Below are positions 3,333-20,536 of a stretch of DNA of 34,792 bases, one piece after another. The notes beneath the pieces are model-generated. The model worked only from the letters and a program-made list of their open reading frames with translations, had not been told where the DNA came from and ran no database searches. The stretch comes from a virus (Duplodnaviria; Heunggongvirae; Uroviricota; Caudoviricetes). The stretch covers positions 64,001 through 98,792 of IMG/VR virus record IMGVR_UViG_3300035208_005635, one strand, 5' to 3'. Position numbers and translations under genes: made by a program. Position 1 is the first letter of the stretch; each line of letters opens with the position of its first letter.

Positions 3333-3333
3333 T

Positions 3334-3600: not shown

Positions 3601-3603
3601 CTT

Positions 3604-4356
3604 ATGCCAGAAGAAATAAATTATCAATTAGGTTGTATTCAAGACCCAGTGGATACAAACGATTTATTACTAAGTCAATATATCATTCCTAATAGATTGC
3701 CTAAATCTATAGATTGGTTTCAAACAGAAGTTCCAGTATTAGACCAAGGCAGAGAGCCTGCTTGTGTCGGATACGCTAGTGTTGCTCTCAAGCAAAACCA
3801 AGAAAAGATAGATGAGAACAAGATATTAAACTTTTCTGGGCTAGACCTTTATAAACGCTGTAAAGAAATAGACGAAATGCCGGGAGTTGACGGAACTAAT
3901 ATTCGTTGGGCGTTAAAAGTTTTACAAGAAGAAGGAATATCAGAAGCTGGTGGTGATATTTATAAGATAGGGGCTTATACAAGAGTAACTACTCTTGAGG
4001 AATTAAAATATTCCTTAGTGTCTAATGGTTTTGCTTTATTAGGTGTTCGAGCAATGCCGAGAATGTTTAACCCTAAAGATGGAGTAGTTTTTTCTGAAGA
4101 GGGCGATGTATCAAAAGGAGGACATTGTATTTTAGTAGGAGGATACGACGATTATTCGCAGAGAATAACCTTTAAAAATTCTTGGGGTCCTGCTTGGGGA
4201 TTGAGCGGTTATGGCTATTTAACCTACGAGTATTTCAATAAGAATCTAACAGACGGTTGGACTGCGGTGGATATATTTAATGAACATCCTACAGTTGCTT
4301 CTACAATGTTCAATATCGATAAATTAAAAGAAGATTTAATTAACGTAACTAAATAA
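3604..4356 (+). CDS. Papain-like cysteine peptidase (C1A family)
   Basis: DQGREPAC (oxyanion Gln, catalytic Cys), GGHCILVGGY (His), KNSWGPAWGLSGY (Asn). Confidence 0.9.
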   Translation: MPEEINYQLGCIQDPVDTNDLLLSQYIIPNRLPKSIDWFQTEVPVLDQGREPACVGYASVALKQNQEKIDENKILNFSGLDLYKRCKEIDEMPGVDGTNIRWALKVLQEEGISEAGGDIYKIGAYTRVTTLEELKYSLVSNGFALLGVRAMPRMFNPKDGVVFSEEGDVSKGGHCILVGGYDDYSQRITFKNSWGPAWGLSGYGYLTYEYFNKNLTDGWTAVDIFNEHPTVASTMFNIDKLKEDLINVTK

Positions 4357-5118: not shown

Positions 5119-6312
5119 ATGAATAATCGACTTCTTATTTACGGCGACTATTATATTAAACCCTCTGGCTTTGCTAGAGAATTTCGAGATTTAATTCCTG
5201 AACTTCAGAAATTAGGTTGGGATATTCGTCAAGTAGCTTTGGGTTATAACGGATTTCCTGAAGATAAAAATATAAAAGTGTATCCAGGTAAATTTTATAA
5301 GCTTGATAGTTATTGGGCTAGAGAAATGCTTGAATACGCTATTAAGGACTTTGACCCTGATATTGTCTTATCTTTGGGAGATTATTATATGTTGCCTAAA
5401 ATAGCTTTTGCAATGGCTTATCCTCATAAGGCTAAATGGATTCATTGGGGTGTCTTAGACGGAGCTCCTTTAGGTTTTGGTTGTAAAGAACCATTAAAGT
5501 GGGTTGATTATAATTTAGGGCATAGTGATTTTGCTCTTGATGAGATAAGAAAAGTTCTTCCCGATATTCAGGGAGAAAAATTTATACCTGCAACTAATCC
5601 TGACATATTCTACGAAATGAATAAGAAAAAATTAAGAAAAGAATTTGGTTGTGAGGATAAATATGTAATAACCACAGTGGCTAGAAATCAGACTAGAAAG
5701 AATTTACCTGCTCTTTTAGAGGCTATGCGTTATCTTAGAAAAGATATTCCTAATGCAATGTTGCTTTTAGGTCTTACACAGCAAAACACTATTACTCCCG
5801 AAGGAGCCTTAGAAGGTCATCAAATTCAATATTTAATCGACTATTTTGAAGTTAATGACTGTGTTGTAATACCAAAAGAAAAAGACGGCAAAGGTTCTTT
5901 GACTGATAAAACTATTCGAGAGATTTATAATTTAGGCGATATATTCTGTTTGCCTAGTATGGGAGAAGGATTTGGAATGATTTTTCACGAAAGTCTTGCT
6001 TGTGGTGTTCCTGTTCTTGGAACCGAGTGTTCAGCAATACCAGAAACTATAAAAGATTTTGGTTCTTATCTACACCCTGAGTCTTTCTTTTATACCCAAG
6101 ACGGTGTTAGCCAAGCGGTAGTTAATTCTCTAGAAGTTATGGATGCTATAGACGATGCCCATTCAAGAAAGGATGAATTTGATAAAAAGGGTCAAGAAGG
6201 AAAAATTTATGTTAGTCAATTCACTCCTATAAACCAAGCTAAAAAATTAGACGAAATAATGAAGAGAGTAATCTCTGAAGATATTAAATCTATAATGAGA
6301 CAAGAGGTATGA
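5119..6312 (+). CDS. Glycosyltransferase, GT-B fold (GT4-like)
   Basis: PSGFARE N-terminal loop, VARNQTRKNL, and the DIFCLPSMGEGFGMIFHESLACGVPV EX7E motif. Confidence 0.93.
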   Translation: MNNRLLIYGDYYIKPSGFAREFRDLIPELQKLGWDIRQVALGYNGFPEDKNIKVYPGKFYKLDSYWAREMLEYAIKDFDPDIVLSLGDYYMLPKIAFAMAYPHKAKWIHWGVLDGAPLGFGCKEPLKWVDYNLGHSDFALDEIRKVLPDIQGEKFIPATNPDIFYEMNKKKLRKEFGCEDKYVITTVARNQTRKNLPALLEAMRYLRKDIPNAMLLLGLTQQNTITPEGALEGHQIQYLIDYFEVNDCVVIPKEKDGKGSLTDKTIREIYNLGDIFCLPSMGEGFGMIFHESLACGVPVLGTECSAIPETIKDFGSYLHPESFFYTQDGVSQAVVNSLEVMDAIDDAHSRKDEFDKKGQEGKIYVSQFTPINQAKKLDEIMKRVISEDIKSIMRQEV

Positions 6313-7100
6313 GCATAGCAACAAAAATAATAAAAAATATTAGAGAAGAAAAAGGAAAAGGATTGGTTTCTATTATTGTTCCTATTTATAACAAAATAGA
6401 ATTTACAATGCAGATGCTTTCCGGTCTTTTTGAAAACACTAAGACACCTTATGAGATTATTATTATAGATAATAATTCTGTAGATGCTTCAGAAAAAGTG
6501 ATTAAAGAGTTCTTTAAGAGCAAGCCTGAGGGTGTTGAAGGTGTTTATATAAAGAATCCTCAAAATCAAGGATACTCGATTGCTAATAATCAAGGTGCTA
6601 GGGTTGCTAAGGGAGAAATGCTCTGTTTCCTTAATAATGACACTATTCCTCTAAAAGGCTGGTTAGAGGGGCTTGTAGGGGCTCACAAAGCCCATAAGGC
6701 AGGGATAACAGGGGCGAAACTAATAATTCCAGGGCAAGGTATTATCCAGCACGCAGGGATAGATTTTGACGAGTTCAAATATCCTGTTCACATAAACTAC
6801 GGTCTGCAAAGAGACGCCAAAGAAGTTTCTGAAGATAAAGAATATAAAGCAGTTACAGGAGCTTGTTTATTAGTAGACAAAAAGAACTTTCTTAATATGG
6901 GAGGTTTTGATGAGGGTTATTGGTTAGGCTGGGAAGACATAGATTTATGTAATCGTTTCAGAAAAGCAGGTTATCATATTTGGTATGCTAGCAAATCAGA
7001 GTTGTATCATTACGAGTCTATGAGTGAAGGCCGATATTCTAAAGAAACAGATAACTGGTATAAATATTCTAAAAAATGGGTTTTCGAAACTAATAAATAA
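6309..7100 (+). CDS. Glycosyltransferase family 2 (GT-A)
   Basis: VSIIVPIYN, IIIIDNNSVD, NQGYSIANNQG, FLNNDT, VTGACLLV, GGFDEGY...EDIDLC. Confidence 0.95.
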   Translation: MSIATKIIKNIREEKGKGLVSIIVPIYNKIEFTMQMLSGLFENTKTPYEIIIIDNNSVDASEKVIKEFFKSKPEGVEGVYIKNPQNQGYSIANNQGARVAKGEMLCFLNNDTIPLKGWLEGLVGAHKAHKAGITGAKLIIPGQGIIQHAGIDFDEFKYPVHINYGLQRDAKEVSEDKEYKAVTGACLLVDKKNFLNMGGFDEGYWLGWEDIDLCNRFRKAGYHIWYASKSELYHYESMSEGRYSKETDNWYKYSKKWVFETNK

Positions 7101-7104
7101 TACT

Positions 7105-7407
7105 ATGGGAGAAATGAAAAAAGTTAATCCCGAGGAAGTTAAAGCAAGGATTAAATTACGTCAAAAGATTTATTATCAAACTCATAAAAAGAGATTAGTA
7201 GAGTCTGCAAAAAATTATTATCAAGAAAACAAAAGTAGTATCTTAAAAGATAACAAAAAATCTCTTAGAAAAAAGAAATATGATACTTTGTATTATATTA
7301 AGCATAAGACAGAAATTTTATCTAAAAGACATTACTTAGCAGAGCAAAAAAAACTAAAAAGAAAATTAAATGGAATATCAGCACAACAAAATAAAAATGG
7401 CTACTAG
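7105..7407 (+). CDS. Very basic hypothetical protein with YY-x2-3-K-x2-I repeats
   Basis: YYQTHKKRL, YYQENKSSI and YYIKHKTEI repeats; ATG7105 preferred over 7024. Confidence 0.55.
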   Translation: MGEMKKVNPEEVKARIKLRQKIYYQTHKKRLVESAKNYYQENKSSILKDNKKSLRKKKYDTLYYIKHKTEILSKRHYLAEQKKLKRKLNGISAQQNKNGY

Positions 7408-7549
7408 AGTTCGAGGAAAGAAAGTAGACCAAGATTATGCTGCTTTCTTTCAATCTGAAGTTTTAGGAGTTCTTCAAGGTTCTAAAAAACCTGATATTTT
7501 AAACAAAAAAGACTATGGATTTTTACCAAAGAGGAAAAATAGAGGTTAA
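7397..7549 (+). CDS. Small hypothetical protein (50 aa, not in ORF track)
   Basis: MATRVRGKKVDQDYAAFFQSEVLGVLQGSKKPDILNKKDYGFLPKRKNRG bridges 7407 to 7515 with short overlaps on both sides. Confidence 0.5.
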   Translation: MATRVRGKKVDQDYAAFFQSEVLGVLQGSKKPDILNKKDYGFLPKRKNRG

Positions 7550-7721
7550 AATAAACGGGGAGAGCATAGGCTATGTTTCTGCTATAGATATTCGCCGTCA
7601 AGGGGGGATGTCTATAAACTTAATTAAAGAAAGTGTCGATACCGTGGAAACGGTTGACACACAACAGTCCTATGATGATTTCTTTAACAAATTTAAAAGA
7701 GTCTTTAGCAAAGACAATTAA
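7515..7721 (+). CDS. Small hypothetical protein
   Basis: 68-aa ORF with T-ATG start; stops 4 nt before ATG7726. Confidence 0.55.
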   Translation: MDFYQRGKIEVKINGESIGYVSAIDIRRQGGMSINLIKESVDTVETVDTQQSYDDFFNKFKRVFSKDN

Positions 7722-7725
7722 TTTT

Positions 7726-8244
7726 ATGTCTAAAAGTAAAGAGAAAACAATAAGAGATAGAGTAGAGGAAATTTATTCTCAATTCTTTATCAAAACAGAT
7801 ATACCGATAGAAAGCGAAAGAGTTAGGTTTATTTCTGCTGTTTTAGAACTTCTTGAAAGAGCAAAAAGTCCTAGTTTATTTTGCCCTAAATGCGACCAAA
7901 GAATGAGTATTGATTTAGAAACAGGAAGTATGTCTTGTTTCAACTGTGGTTATGAAAAGAAAAGAACTATTCCTGTTTCAGAAGAAGAGAAGATAATTTC
8001 TACTCCTAAACCTTTAATATCTAAGACAGTTGCTAAGACAGGAGAAAAGCCAGACCCTAGATTAATAAATGCAATCAATCAAGTAGAAAAAGGACCTGCG
8101 GGTAAATCCCCCAAAAAATCTATTGGCGAAGCTCTTAGAAAACTAGCAGACGGTCGAAATTCTCCTGTTGTTACTGCTGAAGACGAAGCACAGATAAGAA
8201 GTATTCCCGGTGTCCCGCAAAAAGGAGGAATTAACTGGGTATAA
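7726..8244 (+). CDS. Zinc-ribbon-containing hypothetical protein
   Basis: CPKC-x12-CFNC motif; low-complexity K/P-rich C-terminal half; ATG7726 preferred over 7633. Confidence 0.65.
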   Translation: MSKSKEKTIRDRVEEIYSQFFIKTDIPIESERVRFISAVLELLERAKSPSLFCPKCDQRMSIDLETGSMSCFNCGYEKKRTIPVSEEEKIISTPKPLISKTVAKTGEKPDPRLINAINQVEKGPAGKSPKKSIGEALRKLADGRNSPVVTAEDEAQIRSIPGVPQKGGINWV

Positions 8245-8246
8245 AT

Positions 8247-8693
8247 ATGTCATTGATAATAGACCCACACAACATAATAAGTCGCTTAATAACTCCTGAC
8301 GATTATGCAAGAGTAAAGGAAGAAGCAGACAGGATTTATGAGGAGGCTTTCAGTCCCAAAGGAATTTTTAAAAAAGTTTATGCAGTTGCTCACCAGCAAG
8401 TAACTGATAAAGACCCGCTTAGATTCTTTATTTTAAGGTCTGGTTTAATAGTAATGAATCCAGAAATTATAAGACACACAAAAACAACAGTCGGAGATTA
8501 CGAAGCTTGTTTATCTTTTCCTAATAATTATCAGATACTTGTTCAAAGATGGTATAAAATTACAGTTAAATACGAGAAGTTAAATAACGATTTAACAGTC
8601 TATCAAAGAGAAGAGCATTTAAAAGGTTTAGAAGCGAGAATATTTCAACACGAAATGGCTCACTTCGACTGCAATTATATTTATGAACAGTAA
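8247..8693 (+). CDS. def: Peptide deformylase (divergent)
   Basis: MNPEI, EACLS (EGCLS motif), ARIFQHEMAH (HExxH); motif 1 is altered to VYAVAHQQV. Confidence 0.88.
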   Translation: MSLIIDPHNIISRLITPDDYARVKEEADRIYEEAFSPKGIFKKVYAVAHQQVTDKDPLRFFILRSGLIVMNPEIIRHTKTTVGDYEACLSFPNNYQILVQRWYKITVKYEKLNNDLTVYQREEHLKGLEARIFQHEMAHFDCNYIYEQ

Positions 8694-9180
8694 ACAGCAA
8701 ATTGAAGAAGAATATAGCAAAAAAGACCCGTGGGGGTATGAAACAAATCCTTTCGATAAAATAAGATTGAATAAGATTTTGGATGCTTTGAAACCCTATG
8801 GAATTTTTAACAAGGCTTTAGATATAGGTTGCGGAGAAGGATTTATTACAAAGCATTTACCGGCTAAAGAAATATATGGGTATGATGAATCAGACATTGC
8901 TATGAGTAGATGTCCTAAAGAAATTAAGACGTTAAGAAAACCAGACGTAGAAGGAAAATTTGATTTGGTTATTGCTTCGGGTGTTATGTATAACCAGTAT
9001 GATTATCTTTCTATTATTGATTTGATAAATAGGCACTCTTCAGGAATAGTTTTGCTGTGTAATATTTTTTCTTCTGAAGTAGAAGAGGTTAATCAGTTAA
9101 AGAATGAGGTTTATAAAGAAACATTCCCTTACAGAGACTGGAATGAAATAATTAAAATCTATGATTATCAGGTGCACTAA
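8683..9180 (+). CDS. Class I SAM-dependent methyltransferase (NodS-like)
   Basis: ALDIGCGEG SAM motif, FDLVIASGVMY, N-terminal DPW motif as in NodS-type enzymes. Confidence 0.85.
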   Translation: MNSKQQIEEEYSKKDPWGYETNPFDKIRLNKILDALKPYGIFNKALDIGCGEGFITKHLPAKEIYGYDESDIAMSRCPKEIKTLRKPDVEGKFDLVIASGVMYNQYDYLSIIDLINRHSSGIVLLCNIFSSEVEEVNQLKNEVYKETFPYRDWNEIIKIYDYQVH

Positions 9181-9361
9181 TTGCGGTTCTCATTTTAATA
9201 ATGAATCCGTTAAAAATTGTCCTATTTGTTTTCCAAGGAGAGTTAAAAAGAGAAGAGATAATCTAGGAATAAAGAGTTTCCTACGTTCTGATATTAAAGA
9301 TAAGAAAAGAACTTCGACAGGGTATTCGCATAGATTAAAAACAGGCGGAAGTTCTGGTTAA
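9161..9361 (+). CDS. Small zinc-ribbon protein
   Basis: CTNCG-x8-CPIC followed by a basic tail. Confidence 0.6.
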   Translation: MIIRCTNCGSHFNNESVKNCPICFPRRVKKRRDNLGIKSFLRSDIKDKKRTSTGYSHRLKTGGSSG

Positions 9362-9365
9362 TACT

Positions 9366-9515
9366 ATGGATAAAATTTGGACACCTTTTATTATAGGTTT
9401 AATTGTTTCTGTCTTTATTTATATTATCGGTTTTGGTTTGGGAGGATTCTTATATAATAATCATAATTTAGAAATAGACTTTTTCCATACTTTTAGGATT
9501 AGTGTAAATTGGTGA
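9366..9515 (+). CDS. Small membrane protein (49 aa, not in ORF track)
   Basis: MDKIWTPFIIGLIVSVFIYIIGFGLGGFLYNNHNLEIDFFHTFRISVNW; one hydrophobic helix; fills the gap exactly with a T-ATG start. Confidence 0.6.
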   Translation: MDKIWTPFIIGLIVSVFIYIIGFGLGGFLYNNHNLEIDFFHTFRISVNW

Positions 9516-9518
9516 TAT

Positions 9519-11306
9519 ATGAAAAAAAATAACGAAGTGATAAGAATAAAAAATAATTCTTTCTATCCTCTGATATCAGTTATAATTGCCAGCAGAGTAG
9601 AAGAAGAGATAAAAACTATTTCTTCTCTAAAAAAACAAACATACGAAAATATTGAAGTAATTATTGAATATGATGTAAATAAAGAAGGAGTAGCCGTAGT
9701 TAGAAACAGAGGAAGAAAAAAAGCAACGGGAAAATTTCTATTCTTTTGTGATAATGATATAAATTTAGAATCCAACGCTCTATCTGATTTATATAATTGT
9801 CTAAAAAAGAATCCTGAATGTGATTGGTCATTTGGAAGATTTTTTATCGGTAACGAAGAATTTAATGTTCGTAAAGAAGAAGTTCCAAAAGAATATGGAG
9901 AAGAGTTTATAAAATATTTCTATGGTATCTCTACAATGTCCTTGATAAGAGCTTCTGCAAATCCTGTTTATGATAATAAATTTATAAGATTTGACGATTG
10001 GGATTTGTGGATTACTCTTAGTAAAAATGGTCATAAGAGTGCCTTCTGTAATTCTTTATTATTTAGAACTGTTTACAGCTCTTCAGGAATTTCATCTAAA
10101 GGTCCTCTACACGAAGATTTTTGGAAAGAAAAAATATATAAGAAACACGGAATACTTTATAAAAAGAAAAAATTGGCTGATATAATAATACCTCATCACA
10201 ATAGACACGAATTTCTTGAAAATCTATTAAAAAGAATACCTAATGATTTATTTAATATTATCCTAGTCTCGGGTGGTAGTTTCGCTGAAAATTGTAATAA
10301 GGGAGCCAAGACAGCTCAAACTGATAAATTAATCTTTTTAAATGATGATACTGAACCTACTATAAATATTTTAATGTCTCTCGCTACTAGTGAAAAAGAT
10401 ATGGTTGGTTGTGCTCAAACAATACCAAAGTATCATCACCTAAGAGGAGTAATATTTTATGGAATAGGATACACATTAACTGAAAATGGAACATTACAAC
10501 CGGGTTTAGCTAGAAAAAGAGAAGAAGTTCGTATTCCATCTGGTTTCTGTTTTTCTATAAAAAAAGAAGTATTTGAAAAATTAGGAGGTTTTGATGAAAT
10601 TTTTGTAAATGGAGCGGAAGACCAAGACTTAGGATTTAAAGTTTTAGAGGCTGGATATGAAATAGATTTTATAACTACTCCTATTCCTCACTACGAAGCT
10701 CAGTCTGAAGGAAGACATAAATTTAGTGGGTTCAATCAAGAACTGTTTGATTGTATCTGGCATAAAGAAAGAATTATTAATTTATTAAAACTAAAACCTA
10801 TGACTATTATAAGCACTGCTAGAGAACAAGAAGAAATTTGTTCAAAAACAGAAGAAGTTCTTTCTAGTAATATTAAGGTTGAGATAGGAACTGCATTCTT
10901 TAAACAAAATTCTTGTGAAAGATTGACTCTAGATGATATTTCTAGAAGAGAAGAAAAATCTGTAAAAGAAATTTTTGTTAAAGATAAACTACAAACTTTT
11001 GAAAAAGAAAGAGCATTAGACGTTTTAAAAAGTTGGCATAGAGTTTTAGAAGATAACGGTAGAATAATTGTTGTAGTGAAAAACGTAAAAAATATTATGT
11101 CTTTGTTTTTACAGACTAGAGAAATTAAATACTTAGATATGATTTATGGAGATACAGATAGCAGAGAAAAGTTTAGTTATGGTTATACGGCAGATAGCCT
11201 AAAGAGTTTAATTCAATCTGCCGGATTCAGAGATGTAAGAGAATTAATGCCGTCAGCAGAATACTATAACTCTCAAACAGACTTAATGATTGACGCAAAA
11301 AAATAA
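9519..11306 (+). CDS. Tandem GT2-GT2 glycosyltransferase with C-terminal methyltransferase-like domain
   Basis: Domain 1: ISVIIASR, FFCDND, DDWDLW. Domain 2: ADIIIPHHN, FLNDDT, GGFDE..VNGAEDQD. C-terminus: LKSWHRVLEDNGRIIVVV (Methyltransf_11-like). Confidence 0.88.
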   Translation: MKKNNEVIRIKNNSFYPLISVIIASRVEEEIKTISSLKKQTYENIEVIIEYDVNKEGVAVVRNRGRKKATGKFLFFCDNDINLESNALSDLYNCLKKNPECDWSFGRFFIGNEEFNVRKEEVPKEYGEEFIKYFYGISTMSLIRASANPVYDNKFIRFDDWDLWITLSKNGHKSAFCNSLLFRTVYSSSGISSKGPLHEDFWKEKIYKKHGILYKKKKLADIIIPHHNRHEFLENLLKRIPNDLFNIILVSGGSFAENCNKGAKTAQTDKLIFLNDDTEPTINILMSLATSEKDMVGCAQTIPKYHHLRGVIFYGIGYTLTENGTLQPGLARKREEVRIPSGFCFSIKKEVFEKLGGFDEIFVNGAEDQDLGFKVLEAGYEIDFITTPIPHYEAQSEGRHKFSGFNQELFDCIWHKERIINLLKLKPMTIISTAREQEEICSKTEEVLSSNIKVEIGTAFFKQNSCERLTLDDISRREEKSVKEIFVKDKLQTFEKERALDVLKSWHRVLEDNGRIIVVVKNVKNIMSLFLQTREIKYLDMIYGDTDSREKFSYGYTADSLKSLIQSAGFRDVRELMPSAEYYNSQTDLMIDAKK

Positions 11307-11318
11307 TTTAATTTTTCT

Positions 11319-11588
11319 ATGGAATTCAAATGGAGATGTCAAAAATGTTTTCGATACTTGTCTAGTATTGAAACAGAGTCACTAAAAAATTCTCTTACAC
11401 AGAGAACTGTTTGTCCTAACTGTAAATCGGAAAATAAGATGACTTTAGAAATAGAGACAGTAATTCTTAGTTGTAGTTTTAGTAAGAAAAGAGAAAGTAA
11501 TATCCATAGAACACTCTTAAAAAAAGCTCCTGATACACAAGGTTACCTTGTGGATAACTGTAAAGGAGAGTCAAAAGTAACCTATTAA
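11319..11588 (+). CDS. Zinc-finger protein, Mu Com-like pattern
   Basis: WRCQKCFRYL...VCPNCKSEN resembles the Com RCxxCxxLL...CPxCxxxN pattern. Confidence 0.5.
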   Translation: MEFKWRCQKCFRYLSSIETESLKNSLTQRTVCPNCKSENKMTLEIETVILSCSFSKKRESNIHRTLLKKAPDTQGYLVDNCKGESKVTY

Positions 11589-11656
11589 TAATATCAGAAT
11601 AGGCAGAGTGATATTATTTAATATTAGGTAAAAATACGACTATTTCCCATAAACCC

Positions 11657-11684
11657 TTGACTTTTTTGACAATAGGTGTATAAT
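11657..11684 (+). promoter_or_regulatory. Sigma70-type promoter for the head operon
   Basis: TTGACT (11657-11662), 16-nt spacer, TATAAT (11679-11684) in the 270-nt gap before the protease gene. Confidence 0.8.
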
Positions 11685-11690
11685 GTAGTC

Positions 11691-11820
11691 AGATAGCATT
11701 AAACTTCGCTTAGTAGGCAATTTAGCGTTTTCTACGCATAACCACGCCTTAAGACTCTAGATATTGAGTTTGGCGTGGTTTTTGCTAATTATCTAATATC
11801 AAAAAAGTTTGCCTTTTTTG
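11691..11820 (+). ncRNA. Candidate structured 5' leader / attenuator-like RNA
   Basis: Perfect stem AACCACGCC (11740-11748)/GGCGTGGTT (11772-11780) with inner GACTC/GAGTT; AGGCAA (11715-11720)/TTGCCT (11809-11814) followed by a T-run; GCGT/ACGC mini hairpin. Confidence 0.45.
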
Positions 11821-11860
11821 AAAAAAATATACTTTTAATAATTATAAAGTAAATAAACCT

Positions 11861-13342
11861 ATGTTGAAATTAAAGCAAAATAAATTAGAAGAAGCTCGTT
11901 TCTCTTTTGCGATGCCTATTCTTAAATGCTATGAAGAAGTTGTAATGACAGAAAAAGGAGAAGAGAAAAAAAGATTTTTAGAGGGAGTTGCTTCTTCGAC
12001 CGATTTAGACTTACACGGAGATATAATGGCTCCTAGTGCTATAAAGTCTATGGCGAATAGTATTAAAGACCATTTAATCGGTTTAAATGCCGAACACGAT
12101 AAATCTTGGCAATCTGACCTAGGGGATGTGACATCTTTGACAGCTAACAAAAATAATCAGCTAGTAATGAAGGCAGAACTAGATGTTACTTCAAAAGCAA
12201 ATGACCTTTGGTATGCTTTAACTGTCAAAAAGAAAGAACTAGGATTATCTATTGGGGGTTTTGTTAAAGATTATGTTCTTGAATGGGACAAAAAGAATGA
12301 ACGTTTTAAAAGAGTTTTTAAAGATATAGAGTTAGACCATATTGCAGTTACTTCTACTCCTGCCAATCCTAAAACTTGGGTAGGTGCTATCTCTAAATCT
12401 ATCGACTCTTTAAAGAGAACAGTAGATATAGACATTTCTAAAATTTCCGAAATGAGTGCAGAAGATGTTGCGGGACTTTTGAATTTATCTTTTCAGAGTT
12501 TGGATAAAGAATCAATTAACGAGTTATTAACTAAGTATAGTCTTAAAAAAATTTCTATGGGAAAAACTTTAAAATCTTCGCTTGAATCTGACGAAGAAAA
12601 GGACAAAGCCACTGAAGAAGAATCTAAAGAAGCCGCTGAAGAAGAGGCTACTGAAGAGGAATCTGAAGAAGCTGAAACCAATTCTGAGGAAGAAACCCAA
12701 GAGAACGAAGAAAAGGAAACAGAAGCTGAAGCTGAGGAAGAAGCTGAAACTGAAGAAACTGAAGAGGAATCTGAAGAAGAATCCTCTGAGGAAACTGAGG
12801 AAGAAGCTGAAACCGAGGAAGAAGCAACTGAAGAGGAAGAGTCTGAGGAAGCCGCTAAAGAAGAGGCTACCGAAGAGGAAGAGGAAAAGACCATAACTTT
12901 AACCCAAAAAGAATTAGATGCCTCTGTTCAAAAAGGTATCGCTGAAGGGTTGAAGAAAGTCTTAAGTGCTCTAATGGGCAAGAAAGGTGAGGCTACTAAA
13001 ACTGAGGAAGACAAAGAGTCTGTAAAGACTGAAAAGTCTAAAAAGGACAAAAAGACTTCCGCAGGCAAGGTTGCTTTATCAGGAACAGAAGAGGTTGTTT
13101 CTCTATTGAAGACTGTTATTAAAAGACAGGATGATATAGAAAGCGAACTCAAAAAAAGACCCGTTAGAAAGACCGTAAAAGCGGTTGCTATTGAAAAGGA
13201 CGAAGAGAAGGAAGAATCTAGAGTAGATTCTGAATTCAAATCTATGGGCGAAGAATTGGCGGATGTTCGAAAAAAGTTTGCTAATGATTCTTCCAAAGCC
13301 TTTATCGAAGCAGGCAAAGTCCGTAGGAAATGGGCGGAATAG
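11861..13342 (+). CDS. Prohead maturation protease (HK97 / herpes-fold family) fused to an acidic scaffold-like region
   Basis: FLEGVASSTDLDLHGDIM, AEHD (His), GLSIGG (Ser), ELDHIAVTSTPANP; then about 100 aa of E-rich repeats and a helical C-terminus. Confidence 0.9.
   Translation: MLKLKQNKLEEARFSFAMPILKCYEEVVMTEKGEEKKRFLEGVASSTDLDLHGDIMAPSAIKSMANSIKDHLIGLNAEHDKSWQSDLGDVTSLTANKNNQLVMKAELDVTSKANDLWYALTVKKKELGLSIGGFVKDYVLEWDKKNERFKRVFKDIELDHIAVTSTPANPKTWVGAISKSIDSLKRTVDIDISKISEMSAEDVAGLLNLSFQSLDKESINELLTKYSLKKISMGKTLKSSLESDEEKDKATEEESKEAAEEEATEEESEEAETNSEEETQENEEKETEAEAEEEAETEETEEESEEESSEETEEEAETEEEATEEEESEEAAKEEATEEEEEKTITLTQKELDASVQKGIAEGLKKVLSALMGKKGEATKTEEDKESVKTEKSKKDKKTSAGKVALSGTEEVVSLLKTVIKRQDDIESELKKRPVRKTVKAVAIEKDEEKEESRVDSEFKSMGEELADVRKKFANDSSKAFIEAGKVRRKWAE
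12589..12890 (+). repeat. Degenerate tandem GAA/GAG-rich repeats encoding an EEEA/TEEE acidic tract
   Basis: Recurrent units such as ACTGAAGAGGAA and GAAGAAGCTGAAAC; GCCGCTGAAGAAGAGGCTACTGAAGAGGAA recurs as GCCGCTAAAGAAGAGGCTACCGAAGAGGAA. Confidence 0.8.
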
Positions 13343-13386
13343 TAACAGCCATTTCACTTTTAGTAATTTAATAAGTCAATTTGCGT

Positions 13387-14391
13387 ATGTATAAAAACGT
13401 TGCTCAAAGCTTGTTAGACGCGGTGAAAGTTTTGCAGAAATCTGAGAATATGAAGGACGGATTGTCCGAAGCCGTCAAAATTCTTGAGAAGACTGTAGAA
13501 ACTACAACCACTTCTACCTATGCTCAACGTGAACATTTGGATACTCGCTTAGCAGACATCACGGATAGAAAAACTCCTTTTCTAGACAGAGTCTCTAAGA
13601 AAAAGGCCAATGGTATCACTCACGAATGGGATATGATTACCGCCTTAGGCAGTAATGATACAGCCACCGCGGAATGTGGAACTCCGCCAGACAATGAAGC
13701 CACAATCACCCGCTATTCGGCTCAAATCAAAACCTTTGCTTCTAAAGTCGAGGTTTGCGACAAAGCTCAATGGGGTGCCTCTGATTACTTCGACTTGATG
13801 GATTTACATTTAATGCACGGAATGAGAAAAATCCTTCAGGATGTCGAAAAGAAATGTTTCTATGGAGACGCTACCGGTTCTCCGAATGAGTTCGATGGTA
13901 TTTATAATATTGTATCGGATTATGCTTCCGGCAATATTGTAGACGCAACTCATCACAAGATTTCTACAACTTATATTGATACTGCTATTCAAGCTGTTAT
14001 CGATAACGGCGGTATGCCTGATACTCTTTGGATATCTGCTAGAGATATTAAAGATTTGGCTACTACTTGGTCTAGTGTTGTAGTTTATAACGACCCGTCC
14101 GCTGGAATGACCTTCGGATACAATGTGGCTCGTTATATGAGTTACGCTGGTCCGATTGATATAACTCTTAACCATTTTATCAATACGACCAATTCTCTGA
14201 ATACTCCTTACGATGATGCCTTCTTGCTGACTATGGGCGAAATCTCTATGGCTGAGTCTGAACCTATGTATAAACTTCCTGTTTATCGCGGTTTGACTCT
14301 TGCTGAGACTCAGTCTGTTGTCTGGAATTGTGTTCTTGAACTACGTATTCCACAATGGATGTCCATCATTAAAGATATTGGAACTGCTTAA
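13387..14391 (+). CDS. Major capsid protein (HK97 fold, SU10-MCP-like)
   Basis: Follows the protease; DITDRKTPFL, THEWD, HGMRKILQDVEKKCFYGD...EFDGI; higher GC and biased codons; strong terminator after it. ATG13387 preferred over TTG13381. Confidence 0.9.
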   Translation: MYKNVAQSLLDAVKVLQKSENMKDGLSEAVKILEKTVETTTTSTYAQREHLDTRLADITDRKTPFLDRVSKKKANGITHEWDMITALGSNDTATAECGTPPDNEATITRYSAQIKTFASKVEVCDKAQWGASDYFDLMDLHLMHGMRKILQDVEKKCFYGDATGSPNEFDGIYNIVSDYASGNIVDATHHKISTTYIDTAIQAVIDNGGMPDTLWISARDIKDLATTWSSVVVYNDPSAGMTFGYNVARYMSYAGPIDITLNHFINTTNSLNTPYDDAFLLTMGEISMAESEPMYKLPVYRGLTLAETQSVVWNCVLELRIPQWMSIIKDIGTA

Positions 14392-14398
14392 AGTTTGT

Positions 14399-14437
14399 AA
14401 GAGAGGTAGGTGGGTGTAATCTGCCTACCTCTCTTTT
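14399..14437 (+). terminator. Rho-independent terminator after the capsid gene
   Basis: GAGAGGTAGGTGG-GTGTAAT-CTGCCTACCTCTC 13-bp stem (two G.U pairs) followed by TTTT. Confidence 0.85.
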
Positions 14438-14472
14438 GAGGGATTTTAATTAAGTAATAAATAAATATACTT

Positions 14473-14916
14473 ATGTCAGAAAATAATAAAGAGGAATTGA
14501 CCTCGGAAGAGGCAAAAAAATTAGAAGAGGCAAAAAAACTAGAAGAAGAAAAGGCAAAAAATAATAAGGATTTTGTTCCTGTTTCAGATAGAAAAGTTAA
14601 AGTTATTTCTCAGACTATTTTTAGCTCTAAGATTGTTGTTGTTTCTGGAATAGCTAAACCTACTAATGGACCTTCTAGAGAAATCTTTAATGTCTATTCT
14701 TTTAATTTAGACGGAGAAACCATAATGACGGAAAAAGATGCTATTCTATTTTGGAAGAATAGAAAAGAATCTCCTGAATGGAGAAATGATATCGAAGTTT
14801 TAGGATTAGACGGCGAGGGTGAATACACAATTAATTACGATTATAAAAAAGTAAAAGATTTATACTCAGTGGAAACTGTCGGTCTTGGCGAAAGCGAGCA
14901 ACAGACCACAAAATAA
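14473..14916 (+). CDS. Hypothetical protein (possible head-associated)
   Basis: N-terminal EEAKKL tandem repeat; first gene after the capsid gene. Confidence 0.65.
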   Translation: MSENNKEELTSEEAKKLEEAKKLEEEKAKNNKDFVPVSDRKVKVISQTIFSSKIVVVSGIAKPTNGPSREIFNVYSFNLDGETIMTEKDAILFWKNRKESPEWRNDIEVLGLDGEGEYTINYDYKKVKDLYSVETVGLGESEQQTTK

Positions 14917-14920
14917 TTCT

Positions 14921-15196
14921 ATGAAAGTTCTCATTCAAAAACATCGCTCTTTTCCTATCTGGAAGTTTTATAGTGAGGATAGGAGTTATTTAGGTCAAAT
15001 ACAAGGAGATGATAAGTCTTCTATAGGTGCTTTGGCTGAAGTTATTTCTGACCTTCTACTAGGAAAAGAGGTAAAAGGTTATAATAAAAATATTCTTTCT
15101 GATGGGAGTATGAATATTACTAATTCAGAAGATAAACGAGTAGCGGCTTTTGACAAAGAATTTATCTCTGTCGGAGAAGCTATTAAAAATCAATAA
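14921..15196 (+). CDS. Hypothetical protein
   Basis: ATG14921 (MKVLIQKHRSF) preferred over TTG14885. Confidence 0.6.
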   Translation: MKVLIQKHRSFPIWKFYSEDRSYLGQIQGDDKSSIGALAEVISDLLLGKEVKGYNKNILSDGSMNITNSEDKRVAAFDKEFISVGEAIKNQ

Positions 15197-15200
15197 ATCT

Positions 15201-15467
15201 ATGGGAGATTCTTATACAAACAATAGAATAGTTCAGATAGATTTTGACGGCTCGACTGTCGGAACTTTATCCGGAACCTGTAAGGAGTTAATTCTATCTT
15301 CGACTCAAGCTTGCTATATTGCTTTTAACACGGCTACTGTGTCTGCTGTTACTGGCTTTATGCTACCGGCTAATTCTCCTGTAGAGATAGACTTAGCCAA
15401 CGTTTCTACTATAACGGCAATAAAAGTTTCTTCTAGCGGAAAACTTACAATACTAGAATTATTCTAA
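15201..15467 (+). CDS. Small beta-rich protein, possible head decoration
   Basis: 88 aa, S/T/A/V-rich, CYIAFN...GFMLPANSPVEIDL; position after the capsid gene; function inferred only. Confidence 0.45.
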   Translation: MGDSYTNNRIVQIDFDGSTVGTLSGTCKELILSSTQACYIAFNTATVSAVTGFMLPANSPVEIDLANVSTITAIKVSSSGKLTILELF

Positions 15468-15490
15468 AAAAAAATAACCAGTAAATAGTT

Positions 15491-16483
15491 ATGAGGATTT
15501 TAATGACCAATTTAAGATTGTCTTGGTATTCGGGGTCTGATACTTATCTCTATACTTTAGGGAAAGAACTAATAGCAAGAGGACACGAGGTATCTATCTA
15601 CTCTCCTAATATTAGTTATGTCTACCAAGGCAGAAGATTTAAAGAAGCAGGTTTTAAGGTTTTTGACAGTTTAGAAACTTCTTTAAATATTTTATCGAAA
15701 GATAAAGAATTTGATGTAATACACGGACAGCATAATCAACCTGTTTCAGAAGTATCAAAATTATTTCCAAAATTGCCAGTCATCTTTGTTAGCCACGGAG
15801 TTTTACCCGAGCCTGAAAAATATCCAAAAGATATTCTCATCTCTGAATATATCGGAGTTTCAGAAGAAGTAGTAGAATTTCAATTTAAAAACATACTGGA
15901 AAACAAAAAAAGAGTTATAAGAAATCCTATAGACTTAGAAAGATTTTCTTATGCTCCTAGAAAAGTTGAAAAAAGATTGAAAGTTCTAATTACCAGTAAC
16001 TATTTTCATAACTCTTGGGTAGGTTCGGAAGTTTGGGAAATGGCTAAAAATCTAGATGCTGATATTACTGTTTTAGGGACTAACGGAAGAATGACTTTTA
16101 ATCCAGAAAAATATATTAAAGATTGTGATATTGGAATAGGCTTGGGTAGAAGTATTCTTGAAGTTATGGCTATGGGAAAACCTGTAATTATAGGAGACTA
16201 CGCAGGATACGATGGAGTTATCACTCCTAAAAATTATAAATTGATAAGACAAAAAAATTTCTCTAGTAGAACAAATAAAGAACAACGGACAGGTGAAAAA
16301 TTGACTAAAGAAATAAAGAATATTTTTTCTGGTGATTACCTAAAAATGGGGAAAGATAATAGAGAAATAATAGAGAAATATCATAATGTTAAATTAATCG
16401 CGGATAGATTTGAAAATATTTATAAAGAAGTAACTTTATGCAAACAGCCTTTAAACAACCAGACGGAAGTGTCAAATGGGTGA
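15491..16483 (+). CDS. Glycosyltransferase, GT-B fold (GT4-like)
   Basis: YSGSDTYLYTL..EL..RGHEV, FDVIHGQH, VIRNPIDLERF, GRSILEVMAMGKPVI. Confidence 0.92.
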   Translation: MRILMTNLRLSWYSGSDTYLYTLGKELIARGHEVSIYSPNISYVYQGRRFKEAGFKVFDSLETSLNILSKDKEFDVIHGQHNQPVSEVSKLFPKLPVIFVSHGVLPEPEKYPKDILISEYIGVSEEVVEFQFKNILENKKRVIRNPIDLERFSYAPRKVEKRLKVLITSNYFHNSWVGSEVWEMAKNLDADITVLGTNGRMTFNPEKYIKDCDIGIGLGRSILEVMAMGKPVIIGDYAGYDGVITPKNYKLIRQKNFSSRTNKEQRTGEKLTKEIKNIFSGDYLKMGKDNREIIEKYHNVKLIADRFENIYKEVTLCKQPLNNQTEVSNG

Positions 16484-17322
16484 ATTATCAAAATTTACCC
16501 AATCTTGCTGGAGACAGAAAGATACAGGATAGACAAAAGTTCATTGAAGAAGATTTTAAAGATGCTAGTGTTCTCGATTTAGGCTGTTGGGGAGGTCAAA
16601 TGATGCTAGAGGCAAAAAGATTGGGAGCAAAAGAAGTTCAAGGAATAGAAATAGATAGAGATGCCATAAAGTTAGGAAGAGAACTAGGTCTTAATATATT
16701 AAGAGATGATTTAGAAAATCCTTTTCTGTGGAAGAGTCTAGATAATTACGATGTTATTCTCTGCTTGGCTATTCTTGGAAATATGAAAAATAAAATTGCT
16801 GTTTTGACTAATGCTTCTCCTCTTGCCAAAGTTATGTATGTAGAAGGACACGGAAAGCAATATTTGTTTTCTAGAGCTGATTGGATGGATTTATTTCTAA
16901 CTTATACTTCTTTTAAAACTATAGAATATATAGGAGATGTTACTACTAGACCTTTATTCAGATTATCAAGAGAAGAAAAAACTATTGATTATATAAAAAG
17001 TAAAAATTATAAACGAATAGCTTTAATTGGAAAACCGGGAGCAGGAAAAACATTCCTAACAAAATATTTTCCTGAGTATATAATTTACACAGATACGGAA
17101 AAAGGTTTAATTGGAGATAGAATAGTTGTAGATAGCCACGGAGCTTTAACTCTTTCTAATTTCGATTGTGTCATAAACGTAATAGCGGACTTAGATATTA
17201 GAAAGAAAAGAATTTCAGAAAGAGCAGAAACAACTGAGGATAGTGTGTCTAATTTTTCTGATACTATTAGTCCTTTATATGTAAAAGGAGAGTATGATTT
17301 TTTCACAATATCTAATAATTAG
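16438..17322 (+). CDS. SAM methyltransferase fused to a P-loop kinase-like domain
   Basis: VLDLGCWGG and GIEID in the N-terminal half; IALIGKPGAGKT Walker A and DLDIRKKRISER lid-like segment in the C-terminal half. Confidence 0.8.
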   Translation: MQTAFKQPDGSVKWVNYQNLPNLAGDRKIQDRQKFIEEDFKDASVLDLGCWGGQMMLEAKRLGAKEVQGIEIDRDAIKLGRELGLNILRDDLENPFLWKSLDNYDVILCLAILGNMKNKIAVLTNASPLAKVMYVEGHGKQYLFSRADWMDLFLTYTSFKTIEYIGDVTTRPLFRLSREEKTIDYIKSKNYKRIALIGKPGAGKTFLTKYFPEYIIYTDTEKGLIGDRIVVDSHGALTLSNFDCVINVIADLDIRKKRISERAETTEDSVSNFSDTISPLYVKGEYDFFTISNN

Positions 17323-17348
17323 AATGTTAAGAGGAAATAGAAAAATTT

Positions 17349-18140
17349 ATGACAAAGTTTAAAATTTGTGGTCTTACTAGAGTAAGAAATGAATCTTTAA
17401 TAATTCAAGAACACTTAGATGCAATGGCTGAATATTGCACTGCTGGTATCTATGTTTTTGATGATGCTTCTACAGACAATACAGTAGAAATTTGTAAAAA
17501 GCATCCTGCAGTAAAAGCAGTAATTGGTGTAAAAGAATGGGATGGAATTACAGAATTAGCATTAATAGAAATGCAACAAAGACAGGCGTTAGTTCGGGAA
17601 GCACAAAAAGATAATCCTGATTGGTTTGTTTATTTAGATGCTGACGAAAGATTATTCTATAATTTTTCTGACCTGTCTGATAAATACGATGTTGTAGTTT
17701 CTAGATTATTTGACTTTTATATCACTAAAGAAGACAAAGATAGACCTTATAACGGTGATTTAGTTTCAATGAGGAGACTGTGCGGTCCGGAGTTTAGAGA
17801 TATAGTAGCTGTATTTAAAAATCAGCAGAAAACTAAATTTACTCGTAAAGATTCAAGAAGCCCGGAAGTAACCGCCTATGATAGAAAATTATTTTCAGGA
17901 TTTATTAGACATTATGGAAAAGCAATATCAGTAGAGAACTTCGAAAAGAGATGTGATTTTTATACGGCTAGAGCTCCTGAGTATTCTCTTGTTTGGGAAT
18001 CGAGAAAAGGAAAAGCAGTTCACAGTGAATCGGATTTTCATAGACCATTAAGAGCTTGGTCGGAAGTTCATAAATTTGCAACAATGCTTACTGCTGGCGA
18101 TTATACAGCAGAGCAATTAAAAGCAATGACAAATAATTAA
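17349..18140 (+). CDS. Glycosyltransferase family 2-like (GT-A)
   Basis: GLTRVRNE, YVFDDASTDNT, DWFVYLDADE, IRHYG. Confidence 0.88.
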   Translation: MTKFKICGLTRVRNESLIIQEHLDAMAEYCTAGIYVFDDASTDNTVEICKKHPAVKAVIGVKEWDGITELALIEMQQRQALVREAQKDNPDWFVYLDADERLFYNFSDLSDKYDVVVSRLFDFYITKEDKDRPYNGDLVSMRRLCGPEFRDIVAVFKNQQKTKFTRKDSRSPEVTAYDRKLFSGFIRHYGKAISVENFEKRCDFYTARAPEYSLVWESRKGKAVHSESDFHRPLRAWSEVHKFATMLTAGDYTAEQLKAMTNN

Positions 18141-18161
18141 TATAGTAATTAGGTAAAAGTT

Positions 18162-19256
18162 ATGAGTAATAATTCTTTCAAGCCAAACATCGTATTTTTT
18201 AATAAAGATACCCAAGGTTGCGGTTTTTACAGAATGCTAATGCCCGCCCACCAGTTAAAAATTCAAGGACTAGCAAACGTAGAAGTAGTTTACAATCCTT
18301 TCAATAAAGCTGTCTTTGATTGGGCTCATATCATAGTTGTTCAAAGACCGACTAGCTATGATATGGCAGAGTTTATTCAGTATTACAGAGCCCAAGGAAA
18401 AAAAGTTATCTACGAAATAGATGACTATATGCAAGGAATACTTCCCGATAATCCTGCTAGACCGTTCTGGGAACATATTGGAGGACATATTTCTAGAGGA
18501 ATGCACTGTATGAGGTTGTGTAATGCAGTTACAGTAACTACGCCTAGATTGCAAAAAGAGTATTCATTCTATAACCCAAATATTCACGCTATACCGAACT
18601 ATATAGATAAAGAGCTTTGGGAACAGCCTTTAAAAAATAAAGAGTTCTATGAAAATAGAAAAAATGATGATAAAATTAGAATAGGTTGGGAAGGTTGTGT
18701 CGGGCATAGACAAGATTTACAATTAATCGCCAAAGTTCTCGAAGACTTAGTCCTTGAATACAAGGGCAAAGTAGTCCTCTCAATGTTCGGATTTACGCCG
18801 TTAGACATTTTCCTAGCTTTGCCTAATATGCACCAAGTTTGTGCATCCTGTGGGCATACAGGGCCATTAGAATACTTCCCAGCAGTGCCTTTATTAGAAT
18901 ATCCTACTAGATTAAGAGAAATGGCTTGGGATATAGGAATAGCCCCCACAGTCAGTATTGCTTTTAATGATTGCAAATCCGACCTTAGATTCAAAGAATA
19001 CTCAATGTTAGGTATTCCAACAGTAGCTTCTGATATGCCTGCTTATAATAATTCCATTAAGAATAATTTTACAGGTATACTTTGTAAAGATAGTTACAAG
19101 TCTTGGTATGACGCTTTAAAGTCTTTAATAGAAGACAAGGTAAAAAGAAAAGAAATGGGAGCCAATGCTAAAGTTTGGGCAGAAACTAAATTTATTCAGG
19201 ATAATATTCTAGATTGGGCGAAAACTTATAACAAGATTTTAAATACAACAGACTAG
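18162..19256 (+). CDS. Glycosyltransferase, GT-B fold
   Basis: GCGFYRML.P, VIYEIDD, VTVTTPRL, IRIGWEG, DIGIAP....FNDCKSDLRFKEYSMLGIPTVASD. Confidence 0.9.
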   Translation: MSNNSFKPNIVFFNKDTQGCGFYRMLMPAHQLKIQGLANVEVVYNPFNKAVFDWAHIIVVQRPTSYDMAEFIQYYRAQGKKVIYEIDDYMQGILPDNPARPFWEHIGGHISRGMHCMRLCNAVTVTTPRLQKEYSFYNPNIHAIPNYIDKELWEQPLKNKEFYENRKNDDKIRIGWEGCVGHRQDLQLIAKVLEDLVLEYKGKVVLSMFGFTPLDIFLALPNMHQVCASCGHTGPLEYFPAVPLLEYPTRLREMAWDIGIAPTVSIAFNDCKSDLRFKEYSMLGIPTVASDMPAYNNSIKNNFTGILCKDSYKSWYDALKSLIEDKVKRKEMGANAKVWAETKFIQDNILDWAKTYNKILNTTD

Positions 19257-19328
19257 ACAAGTTAATATACTCGTGAATATTCGTTTGATTGTCGAAACAA
19301 ATGAATATTCGAGAAAATAGTAAAGAGG

Positions 19329-19356
19329 TTTACAAATAACATCCATTGTTTATAAA
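19329..19356 (+). promoter_or_regulatory. Possible sigma70-type promoter
   Basis: TTTACA (19329-19334), 16-nt spacer, TATAAA (19351-19356), about 30 nt before GTG19388; AT-rich, so chance cannot be excluded. Confidence 0.35.
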
Positions 19357-19387
19357 TAATATTTATAGGCAATGCACAAACAATTTT

Positions 19388-19891
19388 GTGGCAGCAACTT
19401 TTACTTGGAATCAAAGAACAGGTGCTACAGGAGTGGTAGTCACTTCTGACTTAGGTATTAGCGGAAACTTGTTCAACTTCCAAAATCAAGATGTTGCTTC
19501 GGCGGCTCAATACGCTTCGTATCCAGTCACCGCAGGCAACAACAGCTACGATGTTTACTTAAGACCACATTTCTCTGGAAGCTTTAACAAGATTCAAAAC
19601 ATTCAGTTTTGGAAAAGTTCTGGTGCAGAGGGTGCGGGTGAAGCCTTATATTGGAAGGATGGTGGTGCGAATGCTTACGCGGCTCCGGCAACTACTACTG
19701 ACGGAACTGACGCAGTCGTTCCTACAGCTGACCCTGGTTCTTCTAATGTTGGTATTAACTCCAGTCAAGCAAGTTCTCTAAGTGCCGCAGGCTACTCCGA
19801 CTATATTGTTCTACAGATTAGAACAACCACAGCCGCAGAAGCAGGTGACACCGAGGTCTTTACTTGGACACTTCAGTATGATGAAAATTAG
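19388..19891 (+). CDS. Putative virion structural protein (beta-sandwich-like), family not named
   Basis: A/G/S/T-rich, with GC content and codon bias like the capsid and tail tube genes; GTG19388 (MAATFTW) preferred over TTG19346. Confidence 0.6.
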   Translation: MAATFTWNQRTGATGVVVTSDLGISGNLFNFQNQDVASAAQYASYPVTAGNNSYDVYLRPHFSGSFNKIQNIQFWKSSGAEGAGEALYWKDGGANAYAAPATTTDGTDAVVPTADPGSSNVGINSSQASSLSAAGYSDYIVLQIRTTTAAEAGDTEVFTWTLQYDEN

Positions 19892-20035: not shown

Positions 20036-20536
20036 ATGAATAAATATGCAGAGGAAATAAAAAATAGATTTGATTTCGATTATTATTGGATTGCAAAAAG
20101 AAAAGACGGAAGTTCTCTATTTCAATTTGAAAATTCTGAAAATTCTGATTGTTTAGTAGAAAATATGTTTTCTGAAATAGACAGGAATCCAGAGAAGTTT
20201 AAGAGTTTTAGTTTAATCAGCACTAATTCGGAAAATATTTTCAGTGTTGATTTGGAGACAGGAGACTTTAAATTAAACGGAGTTAATTACAAAAATAATA
20301 TAGACATTCAAGGTAATCAATTACGATGTGTTTATTGGAGAAGAAAAGTAATTACTTTGAATTTAATAGATTCTTCAGAGAGTGTAAGGATAGGGTGTTA
20401 TTTTCTAGGTTGGCAAACAACAATTAATAACCATAATTATAAAAAGATTCTTAAAATATTTGCTGACGGAACTGTTCAAGAAGAAAGCGATTCAAAAAAG
20501 TCTTCTTTATCTTCCAAAGCAAATATAAAAAAATAG
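20036..20536 (+). CDS. Hypothetical phage protein
   Basis: 166-aa ORF with T-ATG start; no family named. Confidence 0.7.
   Translation: MNKYAEEIKNRFDFDYYWIAKRKDGSSLFQFENSENSDCLVENMFSEIDRNPEKFKSFSLISTNSENIFSVDLETGDFKLNGVNYKNNIDIQGNQLRCVYWRRKVITLNLIDSSESVRIGCYFLGWQTTINNHNYKKILKIFADGTVQEESDSKKSSLSSKANIKK

Follow-up and report, generated by a model that had tools for sequence, protein, structure and literature searches.

What do the glycosyltransferases (GTs) encoded among the head genes of a groundwater phage glycosylate? The question is raised by two gene blocks, block 1 (positions 5119-11306) and block 2 (15491-19256), in a 34.8-kb stretch of 34,792 bases, called here the window, which forms the end of the 98,792-base virus record IMGVR_UViG_3300035208_005635 from a groundwater metagenome. 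The window also encodes a portal, a minor head protein, a protease, an SU10-type capsid, neck proteins, a tail tube, a tape measure and two DUF2341/LamG fibres; genes are named here by their first position. The original prediction, made from the letters of this DNA, had proposed a soluble assembly line that builds a glycan on virion proteins. The best reading of gene content and position is that the blocks probably encode a late-expressed, soluble system glycosylating the virion surface. Three points support this reading: the conserved head-module position of the blocks, their occurrence in relatives independently of genes for DNA modification and lysogeny, and the precedent of mycobacteriophage Corndog. 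The acceptors named below are candidates.

Gene content of the two blocks

Pfam confirms the count that had been proposed, six GT genes with seven GT domains, in open reading frames (ORFs) that all lie on the + strand, co-oriented with the late genes (Table 1). Three methyltransferase (MTase) domains had been named as well, and Pfam recovers two of them. The third, residues 440-595 of 9519, has no Pfam match and is recognized only in the predicted structure, as a class I S-adenosylmethionine (SAM) MTase fold (TM-score 0.84); its activity is uncertain because the glycine motif looks degenerate.

Block 1 does lie between the minor head and protease genes, although it is not a pure GT run. An intact peptide deformylase gene, retained in most close relatives, and four small ORFs lie inside it, and seven non-structural ORFs stand between the minor head gene and the block. 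A thioredoxin-like protein and a papain-family (C1) peptidase are encoded at 3319-4356, ahead of block 1, whose interval tolerates accessory genes. The deformylase points to a bacterial host.

No block GT has a membrane helix and neither block encodes a protein with several transmembrane helices, in agreement with the claim that the window lacks a flippase or a multi-spanning GT-C enzyme; four predicted helices occur in only one protein genome-wide (record 21805-22665, early region, outside the window). The claimed absence of nucleotide-sugar synthesis holds for the whole genome and fails for the family, since relatives carry such pathways. Genome-wide searches for an epimerase, a nucleotidyl transferase, ThyS, QueC and a tyrosine integrase gave no match, while the positive controls matched.

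A conserved core and an exchanged slot

The window was compared with ten close relatives and with a broader set, gathered with 19388 as marker, of 73 more loci (60 dereplicated loci for GT counts; 15 near-complete genomes). Both blocks hold their head-module position across these related phages. In the close relatives the left end of block 1 is marked by 5119 and 6309, and 15491, 17349 and 18162 are retained at 46-75% identity. The conserved core consists of 5119 (68% identity in close relatives, 36-47% in distant family members), 6309 (42-99%), 15491 and 18162. For 15491, homology between clusters GT4b and c5 (hhalign 97.8%) adds to the Pfam evidence.

The stretch from the deformylase to the protease is exchanged. 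In L002, whose capsid is 95% and whose 6309 product is 99% identical, the slot holds a NodB deacetylase, a GT-D enzyme, another MTase and other GT2s, and 9519 reaches 32-39% identity even between near-identical phages. The MTase-kinase fusion 16438, from which phosphorylation of the glycan had been suggested, has a C-terminal domain with a nucleoside monophosphate (NMP)/shikimate-kinase-like fold (TM-score ~0.8). This gene is missing from every close relative that spans block 2 (L003-L006, L008-L010) and is therefore accessory.

Distant complete genomes carry larger islands, with 13 GT domains each in G004 and G018. The island of G004 adds epimerases, UDP-glucose dehydrogenase, a transketolase-like pair and a cytidylyltransferase, and that of G005 adds LicD. 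In G030 (L107:6054-10745), phosphoenolpyruvate (PEP) mutase, a decarboxylase-like enzyme dependent on thiamine pyrophosphate (TPP), an iron-containing alcohol dehydrogenase, a cytidylyltransferase, LicD and an FkbM MTase lie inside the GT island; the mutase, the TPP enzyme and the dehydrogenase would together form a phosphonate synthesis pathway. The portal-protease slot of G020 (L109:3428-7516, minus strand) holds phosphonate ABC transporter genes, a nucleoside triphosphate (NTP) transferase and a CDP-glycerol transferase; a nearby GT4-GT2 fusion bears an intein. Apart from the G020 transporter and DUF2061, the islands lack multi-spanning proteins, and their gene content suggests surface-glycan chemistry without export machinery. 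A hydrophobic helix occurs in only 2 of 214 GT ORFs.

Block 2 is also tied to a structural gene. In the 60 dereplicated loci, 112 GT ORFs fall in the 500 kb that lie towards the head genes from 19388 and none in the 334 kb that lie towards the tail genes, a point in favour of virion glycosylation. A GT lies at most 1.5 kb upstream of 19388 in 34 of 42 loci with close homologs of that gene, compared with 1 of 15 loci with distant ones, and the 18162-19388 unit is found with three Pfam capsid families (SU10, Phage_cap_E and Phage_capsid_3). Homologs of 5119 lie inside the head module of the cultured phages S-CBS4 and Mae-JY09; no homolog of 15491 or 17349 was found among cultured phages. An unrelated 40-kb phage carries homologs of 8683 (6e-43) and 18162 in a GT cassette directly behind its capsid gene. 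In the 19388-bearing 33-kb phage G043 (L111:5679-7840), a GT2-GT2 protein and a distant Corndog gp38-like GT (1.7e-5) lie upstream of the terminase; in the portions of that genome that were read, an 18162 homolog did not appear.

DNA as the target

It could be argued that the GTs act at packaging and lengthen a glycan carried by modified DNA bases, together with an upstream deazaguanine cassette or through an unrecognised base handle. Just upstream of the terminase, outside the window (record 50416-61272), the genome does encode QueD, QueE, a phosphoribosyltransferase-FolE fusion with an intein, a protein with the DpdL motif LxxxHRHxF (10.1101/2023.04.13.536721), a radical SAM protein, a GT4 enzyme, a DpdA-like protein and ParB; QueC is missing from this 7-deazaguanine cassette. 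Phage DNA GTs are also known to add di- and trisaccharides, and their genes can lie near structural genes (10.1101/2023.12.21.572611). Against this stands the eighth GT of the genome, the GT4 of the cassette, which has no detectable similarity to the block GTs, so that DNA modification appears to have a separate cassette with its own GT. The α- and β-GT of T4 rank 26th and 50th in the fold search with 18162.

DNA glycosylation normally needs a handle made by ThyS or 5mYOX enzymes that are encoded nearby (10.1101/2023.12.21.572611). ThyS (PF00303) is missing from this genome and from 14 of the 15 complete relatives, with matching controls; the search for TET/JBP (5mYOX) dioxygenases gave no match in the genome, but the control genomes gave none either. 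GTs are present in 13 of the 15 near-complete relatives, and 11 of these 13 lack QueD, a DpdA homolog and ThyS, the exceptions being G005 (QueD and DpdA) and G012 (ThyS).

Strong restriction-site avoidance had been taken as an argument that the GTs do not protect DNA. The avoidance itself is real: GATC, GTAC, CATG and GCGC occur 2, 0, 0 and 0 times genome-wide, against 227, 138, 154 and 69 expected, which suggests cleavable DNA. The argument built on it is weakened by the separate deazaguanine cassette with its own GT, and such sites are not avoided in those relatives whose GT islands are largest (ratio ~0.8), a point in favour of DNA as the target. Since avoidance is uncorrelated with GT islands across relatives, it was set aside as evidence. 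On balance, glycosylation of DNA by the block GTs seems quite improbable.

Host surface or soluble product as the target

The enzymes might instead remodel glycans of the host surface (O-antigen, capsule, S-layer or pilin glycan) on the cytoplasmic face through a host lipid carrier and flippase, which would block superinfection or the binding of progeny to debris. The GT2 and GT4 enzymes of bacterial O-antigen and capsule loci are also soluble, so that missing transmembrane helices are compatible with this route. It also draws on weak PHROG matches to GtrB-like proteins (4e-8), on the capsule-locus-like islands of relatives, with LicD, CDP-glycerol transferase and phosphonate genes, and on the lectin-like modules of the fibres. 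However, the blocks lack the membrane-anchored GtrB, the GtrA flippase and the multi-spanning GtrC of GtrABC-type serotype conversion (no helix in the GTs, no multi-spanning protein), and their genes sit among the late structural genes and overlap there, a timing that is late for changes to the cell surface. In phages with different capsid families the block 2 core keeps its link to a structural gene. Serotype conversion goes along with lysogeny; a search for tyrosine integrases gave no match in this circular genome, and 12 of the 13 complete GT-bearing relatives have no integrase (the exception is G030). Remodelling of the host surface is for these reasons considered unlikely.

The product could also be soluble (a glycoside, an osmolyte, or a sugar joined to a host protein or to a defence signal), with the head-module position merely providing strong late expression. 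The closest structural match of the 18162 model is BshA (Z 27.9), with sucrose-phosphate synthase and TreT also among the best; SdgB/GtfA reach ~21 and T4 β-GT 17.4; 5119 has a weak match to the GT4-conflict family (3e-4), and the deformylase, thioredoxin and C1 peptidase share the interval. Nevertheless, GT4 folds are all alike, and 7-13 GT domains, accompanied by swapped MTases, deacetylases and rare-sugar pathways, are better explained by a glycan that is complex and variable than by a small metabolite, which makes a soluble product very improbable.

Because a ThyS- or 5mYOX-made handle is normally needed on DNA and serotype conversion accompanies lysogeny, the first two alternatives lose weight. 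With 11 of 13 GT-bearing relatives lacking QueD, DpdA and ThyS and 12 of 13 lacking an integrase, virion glycosylation is the best reading.

Candidate acceptors on the virion

Should the virion be the target, our tentative first choice as acceptor is the 19388 protein, a candidacy that follows from its adjacency and abundance. Its predicted fold is of high confidence (pLDDT 91) and weakly resembles chaperone-usher pilins and TasA/camelysin (Z ~6; TM-score 0.56-0.63); a sequence search of the PDB with this protein gave no match. The complex model of two 19388 copies with a stalk fragment scores 0.82, compared with 0.01 for the best control; contacts agree to at least 91%, and the partner pLDDT is 62 or more. 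Among solved pairs, 58 of 80 reach this mark, as do 2 of 110 mismatched ones; the resemblance to donor-strand pilins of solved structure may help the score. In the model each copy grips ~15 stalk residues via its last strand. 19388 is thus predicted to bind one stalk repeat per copy, by strand complementation, on both fibres, which the model supports without demonstrating it. As a sheath it would reach ~20 copies per fibre chain, account for most of the surface of the fibre and hide the serines of the stalk. Its conserved Ser/Thr residues outside the stalk interface are 63, 65, 113, 118, 137 and 147. Tandem repeats of 13-16 residues, at least four per fibre, occur in 26 of the 30 loci with enough downstream DNA, while control ORFs reach two, and the 19388-fibre pairing recurs across phages of at least four capsid families, whether GTs are present or not.

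The Ser/Thr-rich fibres that the original prediction had put forward do not hold up as acceptors: their stalk repeats are predicted β-strands buried in 19388, they also occur in phages without adjacent GTs, and 19388 homologs beside GTs are not richer in Ser/Thr. The capsid is possible as acceptor and rates below 19388, and small head proteins are the next candidates. The small Ser/Thr-rich β protein 15150 (15150-15467) lies directly ahead of block 2, with small proteins at the same position in most relatives; it is possibly a head decoration protein and an alternative acceptor.

Several points weigh against virion glycosylation or against the choice among its acceptors. Many phages with 19388 and a fibre lack an adjacent GT, and the Ser/Thr content of 19388 homologs is not higher with adjacent GTs (0.244 vs. 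0.264); enrichment was rejected as an acceptor signature, single-site differences being confounded with the tree (5 label changes). The similarity of 18162 follows that of 19388 (rho 0.87) and that of the capsid (0.85) almost equally well, so that co-variation does not discriminate between the two. Neither capsid nor tail tube has a conserved C-terminal Ser/Thr: most family capsids end in Asn-Leu-Gly and the tubes in Ala-Leu-Val/Ala, a terminal Thr being found only in the capsid of this sub-clade, and the C-terminal Thr tag was discarded as a glycan site. The modelled fold of 18162 appears generic for the GT4 clan, nearest to small-molecule enzymes, and does not single out protein acceptors. 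No homolog of the GT25-like Corndog gp38 and Che8 gp110 was found in the window or the 19388 loci (phmmer, hhalign), and PF01755 is missing from the genome. Homologs of 18162 in phi92-like phages adjoin a primase. The hidden Markov models (HMMs) with which GT ORFs were counted on either side of 19388 were derived from upstream genes. Finally, since unrelated accessory genes gather in the block 1 interval, position there is weak evidence by itself.

Proposed mechanism and significance

The proposed model is that the conserved GT-B enzymes of block 2 (18162 and 15491), together with the core of block 1, would place the first sugars on a virion protein, 18162 being a candidate initiating or core enzyme. 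Donors would be host nucleotide sugars, to which relatives would add their own sugar and phosphonate pathways. The variable GT2, MTase and kinase genes would then extend, methylate or cap the chain, giving each strain a coat of its own, as in capsule and O-antigen loci. The coat may benefit the phage by lowering non-specific binding or proteolysis, or by tuning host recognition.

A bolder and rather doubtful extension is that a large groundwater phage family, possibly infecting Patescibacteria, uses capsule-locus-like islands to put strain-specific, methylated and in some cases phosphonate-bearing glycans on a pilin-like protein threaded bead by bead onto repeat-templated stalks, which would amount to phage 'glyco-serotypes' on a fibre architecture not described before. 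Literature searches on glycan shields in metagenomic phages found nothing relevant; in the literature searched, phage-encoded virion glycosylation is confined to mycobacteriophages, where the described effect is antibody shielding. If the model is true, a core with a fast-swapped slot far from antibodies would mean diversifying selection for host recognition, grazing, proteolysis or mineral adsorption, and the sugar and phosphonate genes of environmental phages that are classed as 'auxiliary metabolic' would in many cases serve the particle, not host metabolism. The 19388-stalk model offers a concrete, expressible substrate, which makes the question testable without phage culture.

Genomic setting

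The ends of the record overlap by 153 bases with 1 mismatch, which makes the genome circular, with ~98.6 kb, and probably complete, despite a CheckV estimate of 75%. The assembly of the region is backed by two source-run contigs with even depth and 1 mismatch. As to the host, the capsid of one relative lies on a 9-kb contig within a Saccharibacteria bin and one 19388 homolog carries a Paceibacterota label; the genes in the window have no Shine-Dalgarno motifs, in keeping with a host from the Patescibacteria or the Bacteroidota. A strong sigma-70-like site lies ahead of the protease gene (11657-11684). A terminator-like hairpin lies behind the capsid gene (14408-14430), so that block 2 would be transcribed by read-through at a lower level. 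The early region encodes a protein with a type IV prepilin-like N-terminus (record 17607-17900).

Table 1. Coordinates of the block enzymes and neighbouring features in the window (aa, amino acids).
Position	Strand	Feature	Evidence or remark
5119..6312	+	GT4 (GT-B) glycosyltransferase	Pfam GT4 5.5e-17; EX7E motif at 283-291; conserved left boundary of block 1
6309..7100	+	GT2 (GT-A) glycosyltransferase	Pfam GT2 4.6e-26; 4-bp overlap with 5119 gene; conserved core
7633..8244	+	Zn-ribbon protein	left edge of variable slot in all relatives examined
8247..8693	+	peptide deformylase, accessory inside block 1	PF01327 2.5e-17
8683..9180	+	NodS-like SAM methyltransferase, variable slot	Pfam 2e-6
9519..11306	+	GT2-GT2-MTase-like fusion, variable slot	two Pfam GT2 domains and predicted structure
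11861..13342	+	prohead protease, acidic scaffold-like tail	PF04586 in homologs
13381..14391	+	SU10-type major capsid protein, candidate acceptor	C-terminal Ser/Thr tag not conserved
15491..16483	+	GT4-like glycosyltransferase, part of the conserved block 2 core	Pfam 1e-9
16438..17322	+	MTase and P-loop kinase-like fusion, lineage-specific insertion	Pfam MTase, AAA_18/AAA_24
17349..18140	+	GT2-like glycosyltransferase, semi-conserved	PF13704 1e-13
18162..19256	+	GT-B of GT4 clan	PF00534 3e-7; phrog_7162 3e-42; most widely conserved enzyme (49 loci)
19388..19891	+	167-aa pilin/TasA-like beta-sandwich, leading candidate acceptor	predicted structure, complex model
20036..20536	+	conserved partner gene of 19388	61 loci
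20938..24675	+	fibre 1: ~19 stalk repeats of 14-15 aa bearing DUF2341/LamG modules, fused to head-closure domain	
32002..34791	+	fibre 2: 1867 aa across circular join, ~19 stalk repeats	

Comparison with known systems

Phage DNA glycosylation (T4 α/β-GT and GTs linked to 5mYOX or ThyS) shares GT-A and GT-B folds with the block GTs, and a Dpd-type 7-deazaguanine cassette lies elsewhere in this genome; in contrast to both kinds of system, the block GTs mostly occur without ThyS, QueD and DpdA in complete relatives. Bacterial capsule, O-antigen and protein-glycosylation islands resemble the blocks in their fixed flanks and swapped centre, and the relatives share with them GT2, GT4, GT-D, LicD, epimerases, MTases and phosphonate genes; GT-D is known from the glycosylation of serine-rich-repeat adhesins. 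Unlike those islands, the blocks belong to a phage late operon and have no flippase, polymerase or other multi-spanning glycan machinery.

The β-sandwich of 19388 is similar to chaperone-usher pilins and TasA/camelysin (PF12389), and it is predicted to be completed by an outside strand. In donor-strand polymers of that kind the arrangement differs, since here another protein, the long fibre, would supply the strand from its repeats and would set the length; a literature search for donor-strand phage fibres found none such.

Smaller head-module GT cassettes are found in S-CBS4 (gp14-16), Mae-JY09, Zuko (gp4-5) and the Manatee Spring phage MW202801, where comparable slots hold homologs of 5119, 18162 and 8683. 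The closest known parallel is offered by the mycobacteriophages Corndog (gp35-38), Che8 (gp108-110) and Myrna (PMC12363180, PMC11256854, PMC4351075), which also have several soluble GTs and an O-methyltransferase near virion genes; the phage described here is uncultured. Corndog carries an O-methyltransferase gene and three GT genes between portal and protease (PMC4351075), like block 1, the virions of all three phages have been reported to be glycosylated, with Che8 gp110 and Corndog gp38 essential (PMC12363180), and in the mycobacteriophage type the glycan sits at the C-terminus of capsid and tail tube (PMC12619734). The GT2-MTase fusion Che8 gp108 recalls 9519, and 6309 is distantly similar to Corndog gp37 and Che8 gp109 (E ~1e-6). 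However, three GT-B enzymes stand in place of the GT25 enzyme here, the capsid and tube have no conserved C-terminal tag, and the host group is another. The system of this phage would work like the mycobacteriophage type without belonging to it. Two blocks with a core and a hypervariable slot, in relatives with up to 13 GT domains and their own sugar pathways, give a design that scales to capsule-like islands and that, together with the predicted repeat-templated fibre coat, is specific here.

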